Sequence record: LC768500.1
Strand: one strand, 5' to 3'
DNA length: 64,000 nt
Source of the DNA: Klebsiella phage phiKp_32
This document shows positions 1,195 through 41,352 of the stretch, in pieces. The notes under the pieces were generated by a model, which saw only the letters and a list, made by a program, of their open reading frames with translations, ran no database searches and was not told the DNA's origin. Position 1 is the stretch's first letter; every line of letters starts with the position of its first letter. Made by a program: the position numbers and the translations under genes.

Positions 1195-1228
1195 AAAATC
1201 CAACCGGTCTTAAGACCGGTTGGATTTT
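1195..1228 (+). terminator. Stem-loop aaaatccaaccggtct/agaccggttggatttt after the tailspike gene
   Basis: Perfect 16-bp inverted repeat followed by a T-run. Confidence 0.6.
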
Positions 1229-1270
1229 ATGCTTACCGATATTTCAACCTTCCTGACCCGAGGAATAGCA

Positions 1271-3502
1271 ATGACTTTACCAACGCAAAAACCTATTCCG
1301 AGTTCATCCATAACTGATCAATTATTTAATGCCGAAAAGATAGATCAGGTTGTTAACTCGGATGAACTAGAATATTCCGATCGTTTCGGAAAGAAACGAT
1401 TCACCTTTTCAGGATTATACAACGTTGTGCAGAATTGGATCAGCAGTTTGGGTTCCAGTTCAGGGGCGTCAGCCGTAGGTCTTAGCCAGGGCGGGACGGT
1501 TCAGGCCGGCCTCTATAACGTTGTTAATGTCGAACAATTTGCTTATCTCAATATTTCAGATGATGATTGGGGTCCGGCTTTTAGAGGGGCCAGGGATAAA
1601 GCAATTGAGATATCGGCTCCGGCGGTTACTTTTAAAGGTCACTACAAAATAAAAGTAAGCTCCGGCCCGACCACTCACACCCTGCCTTTCGACGACGGAA
1701 CTTACGATACAAGAAGAACTGGCGAAGTTCTACTTTCTCCAGAAACCTTGAACACAATGCCTGTGGGATTGGAATGGCCTTCCGGACTCTCCCTGAAATC
1801 AGAAGGGATCGGAAACAACTCAATTACTTTTGATTGGGATAATACCACTGTTGGGTTGTCTCAGGGGATTGGGATCTGTATCAGGGTCAGAAACTGGGAC
1901 GGAACTTATCTTGCTAAGGCCGGCTCAGTTAATCGCATGAATAGCGATATAGCCAATGTGGAGTTTGATGGGTTTAGCGTAAATAACGCCTTTATCGGAA
2001 TACTGGCTGATGGTATCGTGGGATCGGTCAGTTGGGGCAGCCTCCAGTTTAAGAAATGTTTCTTACCTATGACTTGGCAGGGCGCCGACAGATGCACGAT
2101 TAAGAAACTGAGATTTACAGATTGTCCGACTGGATTCTCGGTAGGTGGATGGTGGTTGACCCGTAACGACATCTCAGGATCCAATACCGGGCTGGGGGTT
2201 CCGCCTTATGTTGCTGGAACCGACGTGTACTGCATCGGCTGGATGGACTTCGTTAAAATTGAATCTCTGGAGTATTCTAATAGTACTTCGTTTGACAATT
2301 CCCCGTTGTTTGCCGCGGTAGATACTTTCTTCGACACCTATTTCTACAAAAGCGCGAACAGCGCTAGAACTGCTAGTGGTGGTCGATGCACTAATACAGG
2401 TCCTAACCTAACTAGCGCGAGTACGTTAGCGGCAGATTCTCCGTTCTTAGGTATCGCCGGGCGTGCTCACTCACAAATGGGGCGTTACCACCGAAATCAC
2501 ATCTTGAATGAAATTATTTCTCTCAAGACCTGGGGATGTTTCAGGGCATCGGTCCTTACCACGGCTAATGGAAACTCGGAGCTCAATGTCCCGGGGTGCA
2601 TAGTGGGTACCGCGTACATCGAACAGGCCTGTAAGGTCACGGTTGGCGGTGACGCCACGGTGGGGGGAAGTAATGACTTCGTTACATCAGGTAAAGATGT
2701 TTGGAAAGGGACAAAAACTTATTCTAAGTATTATGCTGGTGAAGGATCCGTAATCGTTAAAGATGGATGGTCTGTTAATAGTTTGGGTTTGTTCCCGTCG
2801 GCGCGGACTGTTGCAAGAAACGATAACGGGTATAATAACAGACTAAGAAGGACAATTGTCGACGATGGTACAGGGAAACCGGTCATACTCGAACAGCTTT
2901 CTGAAACGGTCTATGCGACCCCTCCTCAGAAATTTATTCCCAACGCCGTCGGTTCAGTGGACGATAAGTATTACTGGGTTCAGTTTGAGAAGAACGTTTC
3001 TTCAAAGGCCGCTCTTTATTCTGGTGTTCCGACAACGGCTGCGCAAACACCTATAACAGCTCCGGCGATTAAAGTAATAATGGAACGCCTAGGTAACCGA
3101 GTTAAATTAAAAATTAATTTGGATGCGTCAAATTATGCAGCTGGCGGCAGTAATCCGGTGGTAATCGGATTTACTGGGATTTATAAGCCCATTATTGCTA
3201 CGAGTTCCGATTATGCCCTCGGCGCATACGGCCCGGTGAGACCCATAATGGTCAGCACCAAAACATTTACGGTTACTGATTCTACTTCAGTGAGCCGGAC
3301 GTTTAGGATCGAGCCGGTAGCGCATCAAGCTGGGGTGTTCACTGATGGCGCCGGGGTTAATAACTACTACTTTGTTTTGCTCACCCAGCATCATACTTCT
3401 GACACTAATAGACTGTTGTGGTCGGATTTCACCGGTTCGTTATGTCAGATAGAAATAGAATATGATACGAATGACACTATCACTTCATCCAGCGTATTTT
3501 AA
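1271..3502 (+). CDS. Tailspike / receptor-binding protein with conserved N-terminal anchor module
   Basis: Starts MTLPTQKPIPSS...NSDELEYSDRFGKKRFTFSG after RBS gagga. N-term shared with 5 other genes here; long divergent C-term. The ORF-track start at 1220 is upstream of the conserved start. Confidence 0.8.
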   Translation: MTLPTQKPIPSSSITDQLFNAEKIDQVVNSDELEYSDRFGKKRFTFSGLYNVVQNWISSLGSSSGASAVGLSQGGTVQAGLYNVVNVEQFAYLNISDDDWGPAFRGARDKAIEISAPAVTFKGHYKIKVSSGPTTHTLPFDDGTYDTRRTGEVLLSPETLNTMPVGLEWPSGLSLKSEGIGNNSITFDWDNTTVGLSQGIGICIRVRNWDGTYLAKAGSVNRMNSDIANVEFDGFSVNNAFIGILADGIVGSVSWGSLQFKKCFLPMTWQGADRCTIKKLRFTDCPTGFSVGGWWLTRNDISGSNTGLGVPPYVAGTDVYCIGWMDFVKIESLEYSNSTSFDNSPLFAAVDTFFDTYFYKSANSARTASGGRCTNTGPNLTSASTLAADSPFLGIAGRAHSQMGRYHRNHILNEIISLKTWGCFRASVLTTANGNSELNVPGCIVGTAYIEQACKVTVGGDATVGGSNDFVTSGKDVWKGTKTYSKYYAGEGSVIVKDGWSVNSLGLFPSARTVARNDNGYNNRLRRTIVDDGTGKPVILEQLSETVYATPPQKFIPNAVGSVDDKYYWVQFEKNVSSKAALYSGVPTTAAQTPITAPAIKVIMERLGNRVKLKINLDASNYAAGGSNPVVIGFTGIYKPIIATSSDYALGAYGPVRPIMVSTKTFTVTDSTSVSRTFRIEPVAHQAGVFTDGAGVNNYYFVLLTQHHTSDTNRLLWSDFTGSLCQIEIEYDTNDTITSSSVF

Positions 3503-3517
3503 CATTTAAGGTGTGAT

Positions 3518-5704
3518 ATGACACTCCCAACACAAAACGCCGTTCCTAGTTCAGCTAAGAACGACCAGCTCTTTAATGCTGAGAAGATAGACCAGGTCGT
3601 TAATAGCGACGACCTCCAATATACTGACCGTTTCGGTAAGAAGCGATTTACTTTTACCGGGCTTTACAATATCATCCAGAATTGGATGGGTGGCATTAGT
3701 GGGCTCACCGGAGCAAACAACGTAGGGACGTTATCTGGTCTGTCCGTTCAGTCCGAATTGATTGGAGTACAGTCGGTAGAAGCTTTGCGATCACTTGAAC
3801 CGACTTATACGGATCAGAGAGTAAAGGTTTTGAGATCATCCCCCACCGGGGTTATTTTGAATCACGACGTTTACTATGATTCATCCGATAAAACTTCATC
3901 GGATAACGGATACTCGGTCTTTGTTACTCCCAATGGGAATAGGTGGAAGACCGATATTACCAACGGGTATAACCCATTATTTTTAATAGGGCAGGAAGGG
4001 TACACTGACATATCGTCTGCGATTAACAAAATCGCCTATGATCTGGCGGTACGGTGGGGTAATAATAAAGGCGTAATAGACTTCTGCACCACTATAAGGA
4101 TTCCGGGTAAGTTATTTGGTCAAACACGATATAACGTGACCGGACCTATCCATATCCCGTCGTTCGTTTCCCTAAGCATGGACGTTGACACATACTTTGA
4201 TTACTATACCGTGACTAACACAGACGGGATTATTATCGATAATAGTTATTTCCCGATGCTGTTAGACTCGGCGTACGATCCGTCTACTGCAGCCAGACCA
4301 AGATCAGTCCTATTATGGGAAGCGTCCAGAGAAGTCTTTATTGGCGGGAGACTCATCTTAACCCACCCTATAGGGTCGTCAAGAACATCTAATACCGGAA
4401 TAACGATAGGGAATACCGCTAGCGGATTCATAGATGTCAGAGGGTGTAATTTAAACAATTTTGAATGTTTTGGATTTTATTTCGGGATAAAAATAAATCC
4501 AATTGATGTTTATATCAACTCATTCTCCCGATTCCATTTAGGCCGCAACTATAACGCTGTTGCGGTTTTAGGAGATACAAAGACTAACGCCGGGGAAAAA
4601 TTTAATTTCAGTAACGCCACGATCTCCGATTCAGATTCCGACTTAATTTACATTGAGAATAACGGATTTGAATTGTTCTTTTCTGACGTGTCCTTAGACT
4701 ATCCAACAGGTGATCTAGTAAAAATCACCAAACTCGGTAATGCTTACGTCTCTTTCAATCAGTGCCATATTGAAGGCGTCCAGGGCATGTTAGTGAATGT
4801 AACAGGTTCTACTCTTTTTCCAAAATACGGAAAGAGAATCGTATTTTCGAATTGCATGATTGATATTTCTTCAGGGCAAAGTACCTGGAACAGAACTTGG
4901 TTCTTCTCCTCAACCATCAATACTTTCGTAATGGTGGATAAAACAACCAGGTTCTGGCCATCGACCGCTACGCTCAATTCGAGTAAAACCGCGTATCATT
5001 CTCTTATTAATAACGGTTCTCCAGCAAATAACGCCATTACTTTAGATTACCAATTATCAGACGAAGACCTTATTGACGCATCTACCTTTGTCCTGGGTCA
5101 GTTTAAGCCGGTAGGTGTCAACAAGAGGGTTATAAGTACCAATTCTTATTCCGGTACCGTCGGGAACGCCTACACTGGAGGGAGTTCTTCCACTGATTCT
5201 TGGGGTTGGTATATAGTCAACGGATCGTGGACTTATGCTTCAGCCGATGCATCCGATGGCGATGGTTTGCAGGCGATTTCTTTAACCTCGGACGATGCGA
5301 CTAAAAGCTTTTTCGTAATGTGTTCGCTACCGTGGAACACATTACCTCAAGAGAAATTTAGAGCGCTGGGCGCCATTAAGGTGTATAGCGGGTATACCGG
5401 CTCGGTAAACGTTTCTTGTCTAGTCGAGGCTCATAGTTTGCTGACAATGAACAGTACAGCAGTGGCCGATAATGTGATAGCGACTACTTACAGTCCGGCG
5501 GTAGATGTAGCGGCATTGGCCGCTGCGAATTCCAGGGTCGGTATGTTCCAAGGTTTCTGCACGCAAGCGGCCCAGGTTAACTCATATAGTAATTCTACTC
5601 ACCCGTTACAATTTGTTAGAGTAGGGTTTAAAATAACTGGATTCACTGGAACGATTGAATTGAAGTTACCGACGGTAACCAGTCATAGACTGCTGACAGC
5701 TTAA
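3518..5704 (+). CDS. Tailspike / receptor-binding protein with conserved N-terminal anchor module
   Basis: MTLPTQNAVPSS...NSDDLQYTDRFGKKRFTFTG N-term; beta-helix-like middle region; RBS aagg. Confidence 0.8.
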   Translation: MTLPTQNAVPSSAKNDQLFNAEKIDQVVNSDDLQYTDRFGKKRFTFTGLYNIIQNWMGGISGLTGANNVGTLSGLSVQSELIGVQSVEALRSLEPTYTDQRVKVLRSSPTGVILNHDVYYDSSDKTSSDNGYSVFVTPNGNRWKTDITNGYNPLFLIGQEGYTDISSAINKIAYDLAVRWGNNKGVIDFCTTIRIPGKLFGQTRYNVTGPIHIPSFVSLSMDVDTYFDYYTVTNTDGIIIDNSYFPMLLDSAYDPSTAARPRSVLLWEASREVFIGGRLILTHPIGSSRTSNTGITIGNTASGFIDVRGCNLNNFECFGFYFGIKINPIDVYINSFSRFHLGRNYNAVAVLGDTKTNAGEKFNFSNATISDSDSDLIYIENNGFELFFSDVSLDYPTGDLVKITKLGNAYVSFNQCHIEGVQGMLVNVTGSTLFPKYGKRIVFSNCMIDISSGQSTWNRTWFFSSTINTFVMVDKTTRFWPSTATLNSSKTAYHSLINNGSPANNAITLDYQLSDEDLIDASTFVLGQFKPVGVNKRVISTNSYSGTVGNAYTGGSSSTDSWGWYIVNGSWTYASADASDGDGLQAISLTSDDATKSFFVMCSLPWNTLPQEKFRALGAIKVYSGYTGSVNVSCLVEAHSLLTMNSTAVADNVIATTYSPAVDVAALAAANSRVGMFQGFCTQAAQVNSYSNSTHPLQFVRVGFKITGFTGTIELKLPTVTSHRLLTA

Positions 5705-5855
5705 TCGGCCGCTGGTAGATCGTTTCTTATTCTGGTTAGCCGGCGTCTTCTTCCGTTTACTAGGTTATCGGGCTTTTAAAGGCCCGATAGTTATAATTGA
5801 TGGACGGGTGTAGCGACCGAATCTCTTTAGTCATTTTGGTATTTCAATCATTAAT

Positions 5856-5886
5856 CTAACACCCCGTGTTCAACACGGGGTGTTAG
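5856..5886 (+). other. Perfect hairpin ctaacaccccgtg ttcaa cacggggtgttag between tailspike genes
   Basis: 13-bp inverted repeat; no strong T-run, so it may be regulatory rather than a terminator. Confidence 0.5.
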
Positions 5887-5896
5887 GAGTCTTTCA

Positions 5897-8169
5897 ATGA
5901 CACAGCCAACTAAGAATCCTATTCCCAGTGGGAATATATTAGATCAAATTTTTAACGGGGAAAAGATCGACGAGGTGGTGAACAGCGATAATGAGCAATA
6001 CTCAGACCGTTTCGGTATTAAACGTTTCACAGTAACGGGACTTGCGAAGTTAGTTAAAGATCTTATTGCATCTATCTCCGGTGTGGGTGGCGCGGCTAAC
6101 GTAGGATTGGCTCAGGGAGGAAATATCCAACAGGCGATATCTTATATCACGCCTGAAATGTCAGGAATCGTCACCGGTGTCGGAAATGCGGATGACGACA
6201 CGTCAGCAATACAATGGGCTTTTAATCAAAACCTCCCCATCGTCTTTAACCCTAAAAAGGTTTACCACATAAATCCTGGGGTTATCACTCACGTCGGTGC
6301 TGTAGATGTCAAGGCCTCCACCGCTACCTTTGTTTCTGACGGTCCTGCTTTTGAGATCATAGATTGCGACGGTAGTCAATGGGACGGGGGTATTTTTGTT
6401 TCGCAAACTATTCCGTGGACCGTTGTGTACGATGCCGGGTTCAATGTGATAGAGTCCGGAAGATTGGGGTATGGTAGGATGCCTTATCAGGACAGCGGGG
6501 TCGATCCGAATTTTCTATATCAAAAAATAGCCTGCTCTTTAATTTTTAGATCGTCTGATCAGTCTGTGAAAGACGGACTTCTGGTTAAAAATATTAAAGG
6601 GAGTTACGCTAATATAGTCTGCGCTGGCTTTAAAAATACGGTTTTTGACAATTTAGAGATTAGAGGGGGGCTTTAGGGGCAGCTCTTCTTATCCTTAATG
6701 ATTGCGAACAACCGGTTCTTTCTGGTTTTGGGTGGAATGCGGGGGCGGATACAAGTAAAGGTAATAGTTTTAAATGGGGTAGAGGAACTAATCACATTAT
6801 TAAGAATTCGAAGTTTTTCGAATCCAGACAAATGGGTCTGGCCATTATGGGGTCGGATAATATAATATTATCCGATATTTGGACTTATGACAACGCCGAA
6901 TCCGGAATACAGACCGGTCAATATTCGGCAGCCTACCCCCAAGAATCAATAATTTCCAAACACATAACCCAAAAAGGATGTCTGTCGTGGGGCAACTATT
7001 ACGACGGGTTTGACCACGCCACCGTCACGTCTGGTGCCAACGGTCCTTATTTTGAAAAACACCTGAACATGATTGGTAACCAGGCGTTCAATAATAGAGC
7101 TACTGGGATGGTGGTCCAAGGAAACTTTTTACAAATTAATAATAATGAGTTCTCTGTTAACGGAACACACGGGGTTTCTATAAGAGATTCATCGGTTATA
7201 GATGTTTCCGACAATATCATGTACAAGAACGGAGCGATTTCCGGTGGGTATGGGTTGGTAGTTGTCGGGACCGATAGTTTGATTAAAGACAATACCATTA
7301 TTAACGACGAAACACTTGCAAACTCACATATTGTTAATATTTCCGTGGGTAATCAAGCAAGAAAAATTTTCGATGTTAAATTTATTACCTCCCTAATTTC
7401 AGTTCGTTCTTCCCCTACAATGGTTATTGGAAATGGTGTCGATATATCGTACACCAAAACAACTTCTAATGGAGCGGTTACATCCAGCGGTACAAAATCA
7501 AGTTTGGTTAAAGGGGATTTTGTCGCAGGAAAAACTAACAGTGAGTTTTACGATGATGAGTTTGGCGCTGTTCAGGCTTGGAAGCACCCTTATACCGGGT
7601 CGTATTTAAGATTAGGTCCCCTGGATACAGGCAGAACGACTAACGGGCCTTTTACAATAAGTTACAATAGGGGTAAAAACACAACTGCTCCTACTGGATA
7701 TTCTGATAACACAGGGATAGGGTCCACCGAATTAATATTTAATCCCACGTCGTTTATGCTGAATATCTATGCAGCCAATAGCCCGATAACCCCAGTCGTG
7801 GGTTACTCATTTAATACGACTAGTGTAAGACCAACGATTACCAATTTTGCTACTTTAGGAGAAAACAATTACCGGTTCAAAACTCTATATTTAAACTCCT
7901 TCGTTATTTCAGACTCAGGAATAATCCCTGAACAAACAAATATCGTTGATTTGGGTTCGGGCACAAAACGGATAAGAACAGGTTATTTTAACGCCCTCGA
8001 TCTTAGCACTTCGCCTAAAATAGGGAGTGGTGAAGCGGCGGTTATTGTTCAGCCTCCCGCGACTTCAACTTCGAATGGGACGAAGGGGCAGATTGCTTAT
8101 GATACCTCCTATATTTATTTGTGTGTTTCGGCCAATACCTGGATGAGATCACCATTATCATCTTGGTAA
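5897..8169 (+). CDS. Tailspike / receptor-binding protein interrupted by a frameshift at a G6 tract. N-terminal part 5897-6676 (frame 2); C-terminal beta-helix part open from 6664 (frame 1) to 8169.
   Basis: Conserved N-term MTQPTKNPIPSG...DRFGIKRFTVTG. Frame 2 stops at 6674-6676; frame 1 is open from 6664 and continues as beta-helix sequence. One extra G in 6665-6670 would fuse them into a 757-aa protein. Confidence 0.7.
6665..6670 (+). repeat. G6 homopolymer at the frame junction of the split tailspike
   Basis: agaGGGGGGcttTAG read directly; slippage-prone tract. Confidence 0.9.
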
Positions 8170-8177
8170 TAACATAA

Positions 8178-8220
8178 TTCGATATCTCGACGGATAATCC
8201 GTCGAGATATCGATAATTTT
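8178..8220 (+). terminator. Hairpin ttcgatatctcgacgg ataat ccgtcgagatatcgataatttt
   Basis: Long perfect inverted repeat plus T-run after the tailspike gene. Confidence 0.65.
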
Positions 8221-8287
8221 ATGCTGATCTAAATTCAGTAGACTTGCGCAAGTCTTTTATACTACATTCTTTTAAAGGAGTAACCTC

Positions 8288-10846
8288 GTGGCTACAACTC
8301 CAACTACGGGTGACATCCCCAGCAATGCTGCGGTGGACCTCAAGTTTAACTCGGAACAATTCGACCGAGTAATGAATTCTGACGATCTGACTTATACGGA
8401 TCGTTTTGGTAAAAAACGCATTACAATGAAAGGGGTTCAGGAACTCGCTAATGGCTTCCAGGATACTTTCACCAATCTGTTGGGTTCTCCCGACGGGTTT
8501 AAACTGATCGGCGGAGTAAAGTCTTTTGACACCCTGAGATCAACCCCAGTGAAAACCGAAGGTCAGCGTATTTTCCTCAAGTCTTACTATCAAGATGGAG
8601 TCGACGGCGGTGGGCTCTTCATAGGACACATCGGAACCAAGTTAGATGACTCCGGAACCGTTGCCCAGGGAGTTAACTACTACTGGGAGCGAGTTCTAGG
8701 CGGAATTACACCCACGGTAGAGATGTTCGGTTGCCCTAACAGCACGACTGTTGACGCCGGCCCTTATATCACTTTAGCGCTAGGAGTTGTTGGCGAAGTA
8801 CGTTTACAGGATAGAACGTATTACGTGGACTCGGCGGATATTCCATCGGGCAGCAGGATTGTTTCTTTGGGTGGGGCTGTGATAAGGCCGTTAACCTCCA
8901 ATGCTTCTGCTAAATTTAACCTAGGTTCTGGAAGAGAAAAAATAAGATTTGAGAATATTAAATTCTCTGATCCGGCCGGCCTCGTTACCAGTGAAGACGC
9001 CCTTTTAATAAATGCCGAAAGCATCACCGGATTGACTATTACCAATTGCACCTTTGAAGGTTTAAAGCAGCGTTGTGTTAGAGTTAGAAATGGTTCCGGG
9101 ATAAAAATTACCGATAACAAATTCAGAGGAAGTCTCCCGCATTCTCAATTAAGCGATGAAAGATCCGCTGAGATTTATCTGGTTGACACCCTAGCACACG
9201 TGATCGTCTCTAATAATCAGTTCTATGGGACCGACAGTGGGTTATGGGGGTCTAGAGAAATTGGGGTGTTTGTTCACGCGGTTACGTCAGGGGCGTATTG
9301 GAATGACGTGCATATCGTGTCCAACTACTTCGAAAACTATCGTCGGTTTGGTATAGGCGTGGGAACTCAGGATATAGGAACCCTAGACCAGTTATCAAAA
9401 AATGTATGGATTACCGAAAATACAATTATTAACTCCGGCCAAGAAGGGATCAAAATGAAAGCCGGGTCGATAGTCCATGTTGATAACAACACTGTCGACG
9501 GATTTGAAGGAATAATGGCTGAGGTGCCGGATTCCTTGAACGGCGGAATTTTCATGCAAATTAACGCCGAGTCTACTTGTAACGGCAACCGTATTTATGG
9601 GAAAAATAAGAAGTTATGGTCCGGTGCCGTAACTTCGGCCACTGGTACAACAGTTTCTCTTCCCACAAGTAACTGGACGACATATACGATATCAGCAACC
9701 CAAGGTAGCGGAGTCAGTACCATTGCCGGCAAGTATGTTTATATAAGTTCAGGAACTGGAGTGGGTCAGTGGCGCCGGATTTCTAGCTGGAACAGCACGA
9801 CCAATATGGCTACCGTCAACACCGCATGGACGACCGTTCCGGATACGACCAGCGTGATAGAAGTTTATAGCAACCCCTCCATGGGCATAAAGTATCGCGG
9901 GAATAACACGGGTGGGTCCACCTGGGCCGATAGTAGAACCGCAAGATGCTTCCAAAGCATGAACAACTATGTGGAAGGCTGCGAGGTGGGATTTGGGTTA
10001 TCCGAACCCCTTTTCAATTGCCAATTCGGCTCACTTCATGCCCAGAACTGTAGAGCGATACTAAAAACTTATTCTGGAACGCTGAAAACAACCCGCGGGA
10101 TTCAGTTCTTTGGACTGACGGGCCAGTATCTTGACTACCCGTCCACTGACAACTCATCCGCCATAACCTTTACAGACTGTAGCCAAATCGAAATACATGG
10201 CTTAAAAATTTCTGGAAGTTATTACGATGGGTTGAGGTTATCAAATGTCGACAACTTTAAAATTTTCGGCGGTGTTGTGGAAGGATGCGGGATGGGGGTC
10301 AGCGGTCGTTACGGCCTGGCTATTGCTGGTGGTGTGACTAACTTCGAATCACACGGTGTGACCTACGGCGGGGCCAATGCGGGAGCTGGACAAAGCTACG
10401 CCGCATTTTTCCAGAATACTAATAGCGGAATATCCTTCTTCGGCGGCAGTATGCTGGGTAACGTTGCGGGAGTGTTTAACCCAGGGTCGTCTGGAGCTCT
10501 GTATCCTCCAAGAGATACTGTCTTTAGCGGGGTAGCTGGGGCGGGTCAGATTAAGGGCGTGACTCTCGTAGATAATGCGTCCAAAGTAATTGTCCCCGGT
10601 ACTGATAAAGACACTGTTTTATTTAATACCGCGCTGACCGCGATTAGAACAGTAACTTTCTCCACAGCCTTTGTTGAAGATGGTTGCGTGTACACCATCT
10701 GTAGATCGGCCGCCGCCACGGGGAGTTTTGCTCTCAACGTAGTGACCGCGGTAGGAACACAAGCCCTCGCAGCAGGCTCCTACCTAAGAGTTATTTACTC
10801 GAGTACGCTAGGTTGGATTCCTGTTTCCTACGGTTTATTGAGTTAA
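8288..10846 (+). CDS. Tailspike / receptor-binding protein (852 aa) with conserved N-terminal anchor module, GTG start
   Basis: MATTPTTGDIPSNAAVDLKFNSEQFDRVMNSDDLTYTDRFGKKRITMKG; RBS aaaggag; many beta-helix-type repeats (NNQFYG, ITENTIIN). Confidence 0.8.
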   Translation: MATTPTTGDIPSNAAVDLKFNSEQFDRVMNSDDLTYTDRFGKKRITMKGVQELANGFQDTFTNLLGSPDGFKLIGGVKSFDTLRSTPVKTEGQRIFLKSYYQDGVDGGGLFIGHIGTKLDDSGTVAQGVNYYWERVLGGITPTVEMFGCPNSTTVDAGPYITLALGVVGEVRLQDRTYYVDSADIPSGSRIVSLGGAVIRPLTSNASAKFNLGSGREKIRFENIKFSDPAGLVTSEDALLINAESITGLTITNCTFEGLKQRCVRVRNGSGIKITDNKFRGSLPHSQLSDERSAEIYLVDTLAHVIVSNNQFYGTDSGLWGSREIGVFVHAVTSGAYWNDVHIVSNYFENYRRFGIGVGTQDIGTLDQLSKNVWITENTIINSGQEGIKMKAGSIVHVDNNTVDGFEGIMAEVPDSLNGGIFMQINAESTCNGNRIYGKNKKLWSGAVTSATGTTVSLPTSNWTTYTISATQGSGVSTIAGKYVYISSGTGVGQWRRISSWNSTTNMATVNTAWTTVPDTTSVIEVYSNPSMGIKYRGNNTGGSTWADSRTARCFQSMNNYVEGCEVGFGLSEPLFNCQFGSLHAQNCRAILKTYSGTLKTTRGIQFFGLTGQYLDYPSTDNSSAITFTDCSQIEIHGLKISGSYYDGLRLSNVDNFKIFGGVVEGCGMGVSGRYGLAIAGGVTNFESHGVTYGGANAGAGQSYAAFFQNTNSGISFFGGSMLGNVAGVFNPGSSGALYPPRDTVFSGVAGAGQIKGVTLVDNASKVIVPGTDKDTVLFNTALTAIRTVTFSTAFVEDGCVYTICRSAAATGSFALNVVTAVGTQALAAGSYLRVIYSSTLGWIPVSYGLLS

Positions 10847-10864
10847 TTAATCCAAGAGGGAGAT

Positions 10865-10888
10865 TTAGATCTCCCTCTACCTAAAAGG
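10865..10888 (+). terminator. Hairpin agagggagat ttag atctccctct
   Basis: Perfect 10-bp inverted repeat directly after the stop. Confidence 0.5.
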
Positions 10889-10894
10889 TGAGTT

Positions 10895-12412
10895 ATGACT
10901 ACCCCAACTAATAACAATATACCGAGTAACTCGGTTCAAGACCGATTATTCAACGCAGAAAAATTTGACGAGTTTATCAACTCTAACAACACGTCTTTTA
11001 CAGACCGTCTTGGGATCAGCAGAACGACGTTAAACGGGATTAGACAAAACGTTTCTAATTGGATGACGTCGTTTTCCACTGAAAACGGGGCGGAGAATGT
11101 CGGATATAGAACCTCTAATGTGGGAGATGTTCTTTCCCGTATGAGGACAATGAGTGACTCGGGTCTTCCGCGTCCTTATCTGGGGTATTCTTCGACTAAC
11201 GACCTTGCTATTTTTACAGAGCAGGGCGCTCTTCGCGATACCGATCTTCTTTTGAATGGTTCGATCACCATAGGTAGGAAATTCCGTAGTATTCGCAGGC
11301 ACGCGACCGCATTGAGTTTACGAGGTGGCCGAGCTTCATCAGGAGATACTGGAGTCTTCAATGCTCAGGTTACGGGTGCGCAGAACGCCAGGGGCGTAGC
11401 TGCATATGGGTTGAATGATGGCGTAACATTATTTGCCGACGCCTTAGCTCCAGCACTGGAAGACTGGGAAACAGTTGATACTGCGTCATATACCGCCACG
11501 ACTGTTACGGTCAGCCCATCGGTGTATTCTTCTTTCCTGACCAACGCCCTAGTTGGTGACGTCATTCAGACACTCCACCCCACTAAATGTTGGGGGTTGA
11601 TTACCAGTATAAACAAAACCACTGGTGTGGTGACAGTTGATGAATGGGCGACAGCTGATGGGGCCACTCTAACACCGACTTCGGGCGTGGGGTTCAACGT
11701 CAACCTGATTAATAAAGTTTGGGCTATCAACGCCAACACTATCATTAACAGCAACTCTGCCGCCGATAATGCCGTAATATGCGAATTTGGGGCGGTGATC
11801 AATAAGTCTGGAGCTTCGCTAAACGGTATCGATATTCCGCTGCTCCAACAAAGCCTCTATGATGGTGTGGCTGGCGTACTGGTTCGCCCTGCGAGCACTT
11901 CAGCTAAAACATGGTTGTACGGTGTCCGTTCAACTAATAACAGAATGAACTTCTATGCGTCCGGCGCCACGTATAATAACTACGTATCGACCGGGTCTGC
12001 GCCAGTCGGAATAAGATTTTCTGGAATGCCCACTTATTCGATGGTGTTCAGCAAATCTTCCGATATGACAGATATGTCGTATGTTAACTCGACGATGATT
12101 TACGATGGATACGGTAGACGTCTGCGCAATATGACTAAGTACAGTGTGCTTACGACGAATACAACGCTGAATGCGCTCATTCCTTGTTATCTGATAAATG
12201 CAGCCGGGATAACTCTGACAATGCCGGCTATAAGTAATATGTCTTCAGGTCATTTTTACGAATTGAAGATACTTAGGGCTGGAACATACTATATCACCGC
12301 CAACGCCCAGGAAGTCAACGTAAGTGGTTACGCTACGTACCCTTTAACTGTCACCACCCCAACTAAAGTAGAGGTTTGGTACGATGGATCGACCTGGATA
12401 ATTGTTCCTTAA
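10895..12412 (+). CDS. Tail fibre / receptor-binding protein with conserved N-terminal anchor module
   Basis: MTTPTNNNIPSNSVQDRLFNAEKFDEFINSNNTSFTDRLG; divergent C-term. Confidence 0.75.
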   Translation: MTTPTNNNIPSNSVQDRLFNAEKFDEFINSNNTSFTDRLGISRTTLNGIRQNVSNWMTSFSTENGAENVGYRTSNVGDVLSRMRTMSDSGLPRPYLGYSSTNDLAIFTEQGALRDTDLLLNGSITIGRKFRSIRRHATALSLRGGRASSGDTGVFNAQVTGAQNARGVAAYGLNDGVTLFADALAPALEDWETVDTASYTATTVTVSPSVYSSFLTNALVGDVIQTLHPTKCWGLITSINKTTGVVTVDEWATADGATLTPTSGVGFNVNLINKVWAINANTIINSNSAADNAVICEFGAVINKSGASLNGIDIPLLQQSLYDGVAGVLVRPASTSAKTWLYGVRSTNNRMNFYASGATYNNYVSTGSAPVGIRFSGMPTYSMVFSKSSDMTDMSYVNSTMIYDGYGRRLRNMTKYSVLTTNTTLNALIPCYLINAAGITLTMPAISNMSSGHFYELKILRAGTYYITANAQEVNVSGYATYPLTVTTPTKVEVWYDGSTWIIVP

Positions 12413-15486: not shown

Positions 15487-17295
15487 TTACGCTAATACCC
15501 AGCAAGCTCTAGATGAGTTCCAAATGAATTCATAGGTTCCCGCAGAAGTTAAAGCGACGCTAGTTAACGACCCACCTCCAGGGCCGTAAATTGTATCGGT
15601 CCCGTTAGGGGTTACCGTGTACGTCCCACCTGATAGGATTTTCTTAAATCTTATCATAAACCCTGAACTCAACCCAGTCCCAGACGGAAGGTTGAAAGAT
15701 GAGGCGGCGGAACTCAAACAGTAATAAACGTTACTCAATCCGGTCGTAGGGAAAGTATAACCGGTATTAATTTCAGTATAAGTAACGGATACTTGAGATA
15801 ATCCAGCTAATGAGACTTTACCTGCCGCGAACGTGATTAACTGGGTAGGCGCCGCAGTTCCTGAACCACCCCAGATTCCAGAAGGAGAGAAACTCAATCT
15901 TGGGTAAGCCTCACCCGTCACTTTTAACGAATACATTGCTGTAGCCGTGGACGTAGCTCCCTGTTGAATAGGCTGAACGGCATCCATGACTTTTATGTTA
16001 GCGAATTCGTAGTTTCCTCTGTCAGGGGAATTGGTAATCGCCACCGCGGCGGCGTCAGATGGGGACCCGGTAGCGACGTTATTGGTGAAGTAATCATTAA
16101 CGCCATTCCACATTGTCGAAGAACCTGACGCGAAAGCCATGCAATAAGCTACTCGTGTGCTAGACGTGCCAGTGTTGTAATTGAAATGGGAGTTGGAGGT
16201 AATAATCTTTCTCACGTTACCTGTGAACTTCAGGTTGGCGTAACCATTAGTGGCGATCTCCGCAGCTGCAGACCCCCATCCGTTGGCAAAGAACGTGTTG
16301 GCGATTTGTTCGTGGATTTCAGTACCGCCAGGAGTGTTAAATAAAATCCCTGACTTAGCGTTAGAGTTAACGTGGTTCCTCACCATGCTCGTTACGGTAG
16401 CATTAGGTCCGAATACCACGCCGTTTCCGTTAGACTCGTAAGATTCACTGAGTACCATACGGAAACTTGCACAGTTAGCGTAAATATTATCCGATCCACT
16501 ACGCCCGATAGAAGAAGATAACAATTGCCAATCCGCGCCATTGGCGATATACAAGCAGGTGTTGTAACAGTATAGTATCGAAGAGTATTGCAGATACCCC
16601 ATGTTACGGTTTTTCCCAGCGTAAACGCCGTACCCAGAGAAATTACCAATACCTGAGTTTATCAACTGTACACCGATTGAATAAACACTGGCATCGGCTA
16701 GATATATCGCCGTGAGAGGTCCGCTCGTCGGCGCGTTTAGAGCATAAACCGACCCTGGGTTAGACCAATCCCCCTCAATCCTAATATTTTCAAAAGTAGG
16801 GGAAGCCGACCGGGAACAGTAGAACATGTTACCGGTCGTCCCTGGTTTGGCGGTAATACGAGCTGAACTACGTTTACCAACACCTTCAAAATAAACGTTA
16901 CTGGAAATATTTAAATTCCCAATTATGTAGTTCTTACCCGCGCTAAGTTTTATTCTAGCTGTAGAGGAAGCGTTAATAGCGGCCTGCATGGCTGCTGTAT
17001 CATCAGTTACACCATCGCCCTTTGCCCCATAAGCTTCTGGAACAACGTAGGTCAAGTAATCCTGAACGTGTCCCCCTTGGCTAACGCCGATGTTACCAGC
17101 GCCAGTATTCCCAGTTAGGTTAGAGAAGAAGGTTTGGATAGAGGTTACGATCCCCTTCATTGTGAAACGCTTGGCTCCAAAACGATCGTCGTATGTCTCG
17201 TTATCACTATTAACGATCTCGTCGAGTTTCTCGGTGTTAAACCTCACGTCTATTGCAGTACTACTGGGTATATTATTTTGTGTTGGAGTTGTCAT
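15487..17295 (-). CDS. Tailspike / receptor-binding protein with conserved N-terminal anchor module; inverted relative to the main array
   Basis: MTTPTQNNIPSSTAIDVRFNTEKLDEIVNSDNETYDDRFGAKRFTMKG; RBS ggaggg; Gly/Ser-rich beta-helix-like body. Confidence 0.8.
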   Translation of the reverse strand: MTTPTQNNIPSSTAIDVRFNTEKLDEIVNSDNETYDDRFGAKRFTMKGIVTSIQTFFSNLTGNTGAGNIGVSQGGHVQDYLTYVVPEAYGAKGDGVTDDTAAMQAAINASSTARIKLSAGKNYIIGNLNISSNVYFEGVGKRSSARITAKPGTTGNMFYCSRSASPTFENIRIEGDWSNPGSVYALNAPTSGPLTAIYLADASVYSIGVQLINSGIGNFSGYGVYAGKNRNMGYLQYSSILYCYNTCLYIANGADWQLLSSSIGRSGSDNIYANCASFRMVLSESYESNGNGVVFGPNATVTSMVRNHVNSNAKSGILFNTPGGTEIHEQIANTFFANGWGSAAAEIATNGYANLKFTGNVRKIITSNSHFNYNTGTSSTRVAYCMAFASGSSTMWNGVNDYFTNNVATGSPSDAAAVAITNSPDRGNYEFANIKVMDAVQPIQQGATSTATAMYSLKVTGEAYPRLSFSPSGIWGGSGTAAPTQLITFAAGKVSLAGLSQVSVTYTEINTGYTFPTTGLSNVYYCLSSAASSFNLPSGTGLSSGFMIRFKKILSGGTYTVTPNGTDTIYGPGGGSLTSVALTSAGTYEFIWNSSRACWVLA

Positions 17296-19035: not shown

Positions 19036-20172
19036 ATGTTTATTAGTAAACGGGGTAAACTCCGGCCACATAAATCCAATATTGAAATTATCGAACGGAC
19101 TTTCGGTTGTCGGAGATTTGTCTGGAATCAGTTATTAGGATTACATAAAGAGCAATATGAAAAATGGAAGGGGGATAATACTTTAGAAAAACCCAAATTA
19201 AGTTTAACACTGCTTAATAAAGAGCTCAATGAGCTCAAAATAACTCATTCTTGGTTAAATGAAGTAAGTGCCGTAGTTTTACAACAAAGCGTCAATGATC
19301 TTTATAGTGCTTTTCAAGGTTTCTTTAAGAGAGGCAAAGGTTACCCTAAATTTAAATCCAAAAGAGGAATTCAATCTTTTCGGTTTTCAGGTAGTCGGGA
19401 TATTCATGTCGACCACTCTAAAATCAGATTACCCAAATGCAATCATAAATCGGTAATTTCTAAAAACGTTATACTCAACGATCCTTCTTCCTATACCGTT
19501 ATTCGTGATCGGGTTGGCGATTATTTTATTTCCTTTGTTGACCAAATCGAAGAGATTGAACAAGAACCTGAAAGTAAGGGTAAGTTCGTCGGGGTTGATT
19601 TAGGGATCAAATCCTTGGCGGTTATTAAACACGTAAACGGTAAAGTAGAGGAAATAGAAAATCCTCAATTTTATCGTAAAGCTGAAAAACGTTTAAAGAC
19701 GTTATCCCGTCGTTTAAGTAAGAAACAGAAAGGGAGTAAGAATCGGAACAAAGCCAGAATTAAATTAGCTAAACACTGTCGAAAGATTGCTAATCAACGC
19801 AATGACTTTTTACATAAATTATCCACTCGATTAATTACCGAAAACCAAGGGATTAATATCGAAGATTTAAATGTAAAGGGGATGGTTAAGAATCATAACT
19901 TAGCGAAGTCGATTCAAGATGCGTCTTTCAGTATCTTAAAACAACAATTGATTTACAAAGCTAGCCGGTATATTAAACCTAAAGTGATTTGTCTTGTCGA
20001 TCGTTTTTATCCCAGTACTCAAATCTGCTCTCATTGTGGCGTTAAAAGTGAAGTGAAAATCAAACTTCACGTAAGAGAATGGACCTGTGGTCACTGCGGA
20101 ACGCATCACGATCGTGACATTAATGCGGCTACGAATATCCTTAACGAAGGATGTCGTTTAACTACTTCCTAG
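19036..20172 (+). mobile_element. tnpB: TnpB (IS200/IS605-family OrfB, IS1341-type, no tnpA): RuvC-like nuclease with zinc finger
   Basis: RuvC-I VGVDLGIKSLAV; RuvC-II INIEDLNVKGM; Zn finger CSHCG...CGHCG; RuvC-III HDRDINAATNIL; 378 aa intact. Confidence 0.85.
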
Positions 20173-20299
20173 GTTAAGGGTATTTAGTTACCCCTACCCT
20201 TGGTCTGAGGGGACGTTAAGCCTGCGGAGTGCTGCAGTTGGTACGAGGAAGCAGGAAGTTGATTTATCAGCAAGACACATTATCTTTTCGGAGTAATCA
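20173..20299 (+). ncRNA. Candidate TnpB omega-RNA / IS right-end region
   Basis: 127-nt non-coding stretch immediately 3' of tnpB with small palindromes (aagggta...taccctt; cctgc...gcagg). This is the position where omega-RNA is normally encoded. Confidence 0.25.
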
Positions 20300-20896: not shown

Positions 20897-21051
20897 GGAT
20901 AAAATGGCTTTCTCTATTTCTGGAAATGGTCTAAAGACAAAGGGTTTAAGGACACCTAATTGCTCTTGGGTTAAAAATGCAAATGATCGATTCTATTCAA
21001 TCGATAATGGTTGGGAGCGGTATATGAAAGCCTCTACAGAAGAGATCATTA

Positions 21052-21471
21052 GTGGGGGTAAAACGCATTAACCTCAGTTCACCTGATTTTGGCATTAACG
21101 ATATTTTGATTAGTTTAATCGTTAGATTCAATACCGATATTCGTTTGAGCAAAATCTTCAGGAAGGTTAACAATAATGATGTTCCTTCTTTGTTTAACAA
21201 CAGCGACTTCGTAAAGCATTACACTCAGCGACCTCATATAGAAAACGGGTTATTGAAATATAACGGTTGGACAGTGGGGGTGGGTCGTCCGCTAAAAATC
21301 CAGTCTTTTGATTGGAGAGTGTATGGGTCTGAGGGATTTAACGTCATAACCATTCCCAACCCAAAACCTAAACTAAAGATCCGGTTTACAAGAAGCGATA
21401 AACCAGGCTACGTTAATTTTGTTGTTAAAGAACAACCAGGGCTTAACGAATGGGAGAAAGTTTATGAGTAA
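21052..21471 (+). CDS. Hypothetical protein
   Basis: 139-aa ORF; start uncertain. Confidence 0.3.
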   Translation: MGVKRINLSSPDFGINDILISLIVRFNTDIRLSKIFRKVNNNDVPSLFNNSDFVKHYTQRPHIENGLLKYNGWTVGVGRPLKIQSFDWRVYGSEGFNVITIPNPKPKLKIRFTRSDKPGYVNFVVKEQPGLNEWEKVYE

Positions 21472-41325: not shown

Positions 41326-41352
41326 AGTAGGAGGGGGTTTCCTCCTCCTACT
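41326..41352 (+). terminator. Hairpin gtaggaggggg tttcc tcctcctac + T-run
   Basis: GC-rich inverted repeat followed by tttatttttt. Confidence 0.7.

Follow-up and report, generated by a model that had tools for sequence, protein, structure and literature searches.

Why does a gene of Klebsiella phage phiKp_32 that could encode a single 757-aa tailspike appear as two ORFs, and why do these meet at a run of six G residues? We examined this locus within a 64,000-nt stretch of sequence record LC768500.1, referred to below as the window. phiKp_32, a myovirus isolated from sewage, is 95.9% identical to phage Miami at the nucleotide level (Kondo et al., Microbiol Spectr 2023, PMC10581060). This Miami-like jumbo phage has a genome of 251,460 bp, and its backbone is 92–93% identical to those of KPN8, YC1, and Miami, likewise jumbo phages. 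The two products of the locus, 259 aa and 445 aa long, exactly match BEH89753.1 and BEH89754.1, both of which are annotated as "hypothetical proteins". The locus contains the following features.

5885–5889, plus strand: Shine-Dalgarno sequence AGGAG, 7 nt ahead of ATG 5897, from direct sequence reading.
5897–8169, plus strand: tailspike/depolymerase gene, 757 aa if intact, split by a 1-nt deletion into BEH89753.1 (259 aa) and BEH89754.1 (445 aa); supported by the 757-aa product obtained with one added G, by intact 757-aa versions at 99% amino acid identity on six independent contigs, by Pfam PF13229, and by an AlphaFold2 model.
5897–6136, plus strand: N-terminal adaptor module, about aa 1–80, common to other receptor-binding proteins (RBPs) of phiKp_32, from BLASTP among the RBPs of the window; with KPN8, YC1, and Miami proteins the match is limited to aa 1–~100.
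6664–8169, plus strand: frame-1 continuation for aa 260–757 of the intact protein, which comprise the remaining beta-helix and the C-terminal domains; its first in-frame start is ATG 6832.
6665–6670, plus strand: G6 run in which 1 nt has been lost, G7 or GGAGGGG in relatives, from the sequence and comparison with relatives.
6674–6676, plus strand: premature TAG, a product of the frameshift, from the sequence.
8179–8213, plus strand: terminator-like hairpin, a 16-bp perfect-stem palindrome just past the tailspike stop, without a strong T tract, from the sequence.

Alleles at the junction

A check of the sequence bore out the layout described by an earlier sequence-only reading of this DNA. GGGGGG occupies 6665–6670 (positions 6660–6680 read TTAGAGGGGGGCTTTAGGGGC), and the frame-2 ORF 5897–6676, whose 259-aa product has the C-terminus NLEIRGGL, is closed by the TAG 4 nt past the run. 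Frame 1 contains a stop at 6661–6663 and is then open from 6664 up to a stop at 8167–8169. The two frames can be joined by a single-base indel only within 6664–6673, and inserting one extra G gave, as that reading had predicted, an uninterrupted 757-aa product reading ...EIRGGALGAALLILND..., with ...EIRGGALGAALL... spanning the junction. As it stands, the tailspike coding sequence is interrupted, with a stop after 259 codons versus 757 codons in relatives. The 498 codons past the break lie in the -1 frame, where the first 156 nt are devoid of start codons, and the first canonical start of the 3′ ORF, ATG 6832, is not preceded by a Shine-Dalgarno sequence.

Searching with the repaired protein recovered an intact homologue, P0001 (757 aa, 99% identity, 100% coverage), whose 90% cluster comprises four distinct intact 757-aa sequences together with the two phiKp_32 fragments. 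The intact gene is present as a single 757-aa ORF on six contigs (L002–L007) from six different sequencing samples, at 95–98% nucleotide identity. The junction reads AGA GGG GGG GCT, a G7 run, in L002 and L003, and AGA GGA GGG GCT, the interrupted run GGAGGGG, in the four others (L004–L007); the G7 allele thus differs from the commoner one by a synonymous GGA/GGG difference, and the run is interrupted in three of the four intact haplotypes. The window reads AGAGGGGGGCT, exactly one nucleotide short of G7. Because it is one G shorter within the run than the six intact relatives, the coincidence of break and homopolymer, to which the sequence-only reading had pointed, is real and not due to chance. 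That reading had also called the run the only slippage-prone homopolymer in the region, which was too strong: G6 is the only G/C run of at least 6 nt in the tailspike gene (5897–8169), but an A6 lies nearby at 6522–6527.

The junction motif I-R-G-G-A-L is conserved family-wide. In distant homologues (~54% identity) its codons are CGT GGT GGT GCT, CGA GGT GGT GCA, or AGG GGC GGC GCG, without a G run. We scanned viral and metagenome contigs for the junction pattern AATTTAGAGATTAGA N4-10 CTTTAGGGGC and obtained 0 matches, so the allele sample remains at seven sequences. A megablast search of 5700–8300 against the phage collection matched the flanks and returned no close DNA relative of the gene itself.

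On contig L004 the gene sits, as in the window, within a tailspike cluster that has a PhoH gene downstream, and on L006 it is preceded by three other large ORFs. The same 757-aa cassette beside differing neighbours points to cassette shuffling. A second hairpin (5860–5882; 9-bp stem, CACCCCGTG/CACGGGGTG) lies directly upstream of the tailspike Shine-Dalgarno sequence; together with the hairpin at 8179–8213 it brackets the tailspike gene, and these two strong hairpins may be intergenic terminators or cassette recombination boundaries. Farther downstream, 19036–20172 (plus strand) holds a 378-aa gene for an IS200/IS605-family TnpB RNA-guided endonuclease (BEH89765.1; phrog_506, E=6.6e-111). The stretch bearing it (about 19040–20276) does not align to phage KPN8, which suggests a mobile-element insertion in phiKp_32.

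Architecture of the interrupted tailspike

The adaptor of the split gene shares 40–57% identity with five other ORFs of the window (1220–3502, 3518–5704, 8288–10846, 10895–12412, and, on the minus strand, 15487–17295), and in BLASTP this similarity is confined to the first ~70–110 aa. All six RBP genes (1220–12412, and 15487–17295 on the minus strand) begin with this ~70–80-aa adaptor, whose consensus is MTxPTxNxIPS...DxxFNxEKxDxxxNSD...DRFGxKR, and continue into unrelated C-terminal modules. In having several long tailspike/fibre genes in a cluster, a short common adaptor, and unrelated beta-helix modules, phiKp_32 resembles Klebsiella jumbo phages with branched RBPs (Miami, KPN8, YC1, K64-1/RaK2, and phiKp24). 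It differs from these multi-tailspike phages in that this depolymerase is frameshifted. Furthermore, its depolymerase module was absent from the Miami-like phages of the phage collection and was found only in metagenome contigs.

Several lines of evidence place the break inside the depolymerase module. In tblastn, aa 67/81 to 665 of the repaired protein formed one unbroken match, at ~54% identity, with tailspikes from unrelated Klebsiella phages and from one Acinetobacter phage, and this single continuous alignment implies that the remaining ~180 aa of the first ORF already belong to the depolymerase/beta-helix module. The sequence-only reading had divided the locus into an "anchor-module ORF" and a "beta-helix ORF"; this division has to be redrawn, as the adaptor extends only to aa ~70–80 and the frameshift at aa 259 cuts the beta-helix itself. 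The frame-1 part matched the Pfam family Beta_helix (PF13229; E=2.1e-8; score 34.4 bits, cut-off 25.9). The AlphaFold2 model of the intact homologue P0001 had a mean pLDDT of 69.6, with values of 84–97 over most of aa 81–480 and of 86–89 around aa 251–270, where beta strands 254–256 and 264–267 flank the junction. A Foldseek search with this model returned the P22, Det7, and 9NA tailspikes as best matches (E 1e-10 to 3e-9), and the fold likewise resembles the CBA120 tailspikes and the K64-1 depolymerase S2-4. Overall, by domain profile, modelled fold, and shared adaptor, the split gene is predicted to be that of a right-handed parallel beta-helix tailspike depolymerase.

We also considered a tailspike that is split and yet functional as two polypeptides. 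This is unlikely, with a break between rungs of one continuous beta-helix and a 3′ ORF that has neither a nearby start nor a Shine-Dalgarno sequence. The split has almost certainly inactivated the gene.

The Acinetobacter phage among the homologues is vB_AbaP_Indie (PQ049254.1), with recorded host Acinetobacter baumannii and classified as Drulisvirus, whose tailspike is ~55% identical to the module of the split gene. This phage and the Klebsiella oxytoca phage BaqKoxi have the same junction motif, and the host label or the origin of the module may need checking.

Sequencing error, recoding, and phase variation

The two halves of the gene have not decayed. Compared with the intact relatives, the repaired window gene carries 55–115 differences in 2,274 nt, and synonymous ones predominate both before and after the break. 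For the 3′ part, the ratio of synonymous to non-synonymous codons was 23:6 versus L002 and 22:3 versus L004, and only two changes downstream of the frameshift are private to the window, both of them synonymous. The intact state of the 3′ part implies that the frameshift is very recent, that the gene is still in use, or that the frameshift is an artefact.

If the frameshift were an artefact, the phage would truly carry G7 and an intact tailspike, and G6 would be a homopolymer miscall. Indel errors typically arise at homopolymers, an intact copy of the window's own haplotype is not on record (an exact look-up in the collection for its repaired G7 version and for a G4 version found neither), and the window has another frameshift within a G run. 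Against this, consensus errors at 6–7-nt runs are rare on Illumina. The phiKp_32 genome was assembled with Shovill from Illumina MiSeq reads (PMC10581060). An independent Logan re-assembly of the run DRR406566 reproduced both G6 and the 259 + 445 aa split: its 12.7-kb contig, found via the neighbouring 728-aa gene, was 100% identical to window positions 1200–11704 over the 10,505 bp compared. In addition, the four other G6/C6 runs of the window (2662, 40728, 52009, and 63715) lie within intact long ORFs, and all A/T runs compared likewise leave their ORFs intact. Given the identical Logan assembly and the MiSeq platform, we consider a sequencing or assembly error unlikely.

The second frameshift bears on this question from both sides. 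Comparing ORFs with KPN8, YC1, Miami, BUCTxx100, and VB_ZK_P1 revealed only one further gene-breaking frameshift in the window, at a G5 run (21054–21058) where the window has AGTGGGGGT versus AATGGGGT or AATGGAGT in 12 relatives. It splits a conserved 188-aa hypothetical gene (20904–21471) into 55 aa (BEH89768.1) and 139 aa (BEH89769.1); the family includes KPN8_88 and Miami gp105 and forms a 38-member cluster, mostly of 188 aa. Both halves are also present in Logan, according to the cluster table, which again speaks against an error. Still, two G-run frameshifts per about 37 kb of comparable sequence exceed what a clean Illumina genome would be expected to show, and the second event could reflect a systematic artefact or unusually frequent G-run slippage in phiKp_32. 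A third difference in G-run length between phiKp_32 and related phages occurs outside any long ORF, at an intergenic Shine-Dalgarno-like run (41333–41337), where AGGAGGGGG is one G shorter than the AGGAGGGGGG of KPN8.

Another possibility is recoding, which the sequence-only reading had listed as a -1 translational frameshift. In this scenario, -1 ribosomal frameshifting (or transcriptional slippage) on the G run would yield the full-length tailspike from the G6 DNA, and indeed peptidyl-tRNA-Gly on GGG 6668–6670 could re-pair perfectly at 6667–6669 to produce exactly ...RGGALGA.... Programmed -1 frameshifts are well known in phage tail genes, for example in the lambda G/GT tail assembly chaperone, and the split tailspike shares with that type two overlapping tail-region ORFs joined by a -1 shift. 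The resemblance ends there. The two-ORF layout and slippery heptamer of the lambda type are conserved across relatives, whereas a single ORF encodes the protein in each of the six close relatives of the phiKp_32 gene and in every distant homologue. No X XXY YYZ heptamer occurs in the zero frame (AGA GGG GGG CUU UAG), so that only single-tRNA slippage on GGG is conceivable. Nor is there a stimulatory structure: 106 nt around and downstream of the site had a minimum free energy of -24.4 kcal/mol versus a shuffle mean of -26.3 (z = +0.66), and 149 of 200 shuffles folded at least as well. Restoring the second split gene requires a +1 shift, opposite to that of the tailspike, and one common mechanism therefore does not apply. 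Taken together, these results argue against translational frameshifting so clearly that we regard it as extremely improbable.

A variant of the recoding idea was also rejected. An RF2-like +1 frameshift at CUU UAG, following the Shine-Dalgarno-like AGGGGGG, would enter frame 3, which by eye meets a TAA after about eight codons, and the tailspike continues in the -1 frame.

The third possibility, phase variation, was one of the three options that the sequence-only reading offered without choosing between them. On this view, the G6/G7 tract would turn one tailspike specificity ON and OFF, stochastically and reversibly, and hence be a host-range contingency locus. Natural alleles do vary in tract length with the matching frame, G7 being ON (L002/L003) and G6 OFF (the window); the undecayed 3′ part means that a single +1 slip would restore function, and the second split gene is likewise out of frame at a G run. 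There is also a phage precedent, as hypermutable polyG tracts in Campylobacter phages lead to phase-variable expression of receptor-binding proteins (Sorensen et al. 2021, Cell Rep, as cited in PMC10579305 and PMC10877375). Such variation of RBPs has already been described for phages, and a switch in phiKp_32 would not be the first. As in the Campylobacter (Fletchervirus) tracts, a G homopolymer lies inside an RBP gene of phiKp_32 and its length sets the frame.

In contrast to those tracts, that of phiKp_32 is short, at 6–7 nt; contingency tracts described so far mostly span at least 8 nt. Conservation also weighs against an evolved tract: the run is not maintained, being interrupted as GGAGGGG in four of the six close relatives and replaced by GGT GGT or GGC GGC in the ~54%-identity homologues. 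G/C runs are not enriched in tailspike genes, with two of the five G6/C6 runs falling in RBP genes, which by estimate make up roughly a quarter of the window. Finally, the OFF state is represented by one allele among seven sequences, and this allele comes from a plaque-purified laboratory stock. A maintained switch thus seems improbable to us, a little more so than an error in the sequence. We would give a still slimmer chance to the broader proposal that Miami-like Klebsiella jumbo phages may use the G6/G7 run, possibly together with the run at 21054–21058, as a stochastic ON/OFF switch. If such a switch existed, each lysate would always mix sub-populations displaying different subsets of six or more tailspikes, and polyG phase variation would extend from Campylobacter phages to capsule-targeting Klebsiella phages.

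Probable slippage at the G run and its consequences

The explanation that we consider likely is a real and recent Streisinger-type slipped-strand deletion in an accidental G7 run, which would have inactivated one of at least six capsule-degrading tailspikes of phiKp_32. With no further decay to be seen, the event would be very recent. The sequence-only reading had coupled recent pseudogenisation with homopolymer sequencing error as a single option. Of the two, pseudogenisation fits best, in line with the intact G7 relatives and the undecayed 3′ part, and sequencing error is the part that we would drop in view of the MiSeq data and the identical Logan G6.

Judging from the alleles of the relatives, a synonymous GGA to GGG change in the phiKp_32 lineage would have turned the conserved Arg-Gly-Gly-Ala codons into a G7 run. 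One G would then have been lost from G7 by slipped-strand mispairing during DNA replication, giving G6. The shifted frame ends 4 nt farther on, at aa 259, inside the beta-helix. In the sequenced stock, one depolymerase specificity would thereby be off, and at most a 259-aa fragment bearing the adaptor would be made.

phiKp_32 was purified by three rounds of single-plaque isolation, and among the strains tested it forms plaques only on its isolation host, Kp32 (PMC10581060). Fixation probably occurred through the three single-plaque bottlenecks on Kp32, a host that would not require this tailspike, or phages in the sewage may already have carried the deletion. A neutral slippage mutant has little chance of going to fixation in a handful of plaque bottlenecks if it was neither frequent beforehand nor favoured by selection.

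Streisinger-type slipped-strand frameshifts are familiar at short homopolymers, such as the A-run hot spots in the rII and lysozyme genes of phage T4. The phiKp_32 case shares their features, namely a one-base deletion in a run of identical bases, a truncated ORF, and the prospect of reversion by the opposite slip, and nothing essential differs. We therefore assign the split tailspike to this category as an ordinary event. Reversion from G6 to G7 is possible in principle, but the tract resembles a hot spot that arose by accident, not a switch that is maintained.

In practice, these findings matter chiefly for the annotation of phiKp_32 and for predicting its host range. BEH89753.1 and BEH89754.1 should be annotated as the halves of one disrupted tailspike depolymerase, and predictions of the depolymerase repertoire and host range of the phage should count this specificity as OFF. 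The loss of this tailspike fits, without explaining, the single-strain host range (PMC10581060). One restored G would probably repair the gene, which is relevant to engineering or selecting phiKp_32 for therapy. Moreover, if the reads contained mixtures of G6 and G7, the site would lend itself to a simple test of whether homopolymers drive host-range variation in Klebsiella phages.
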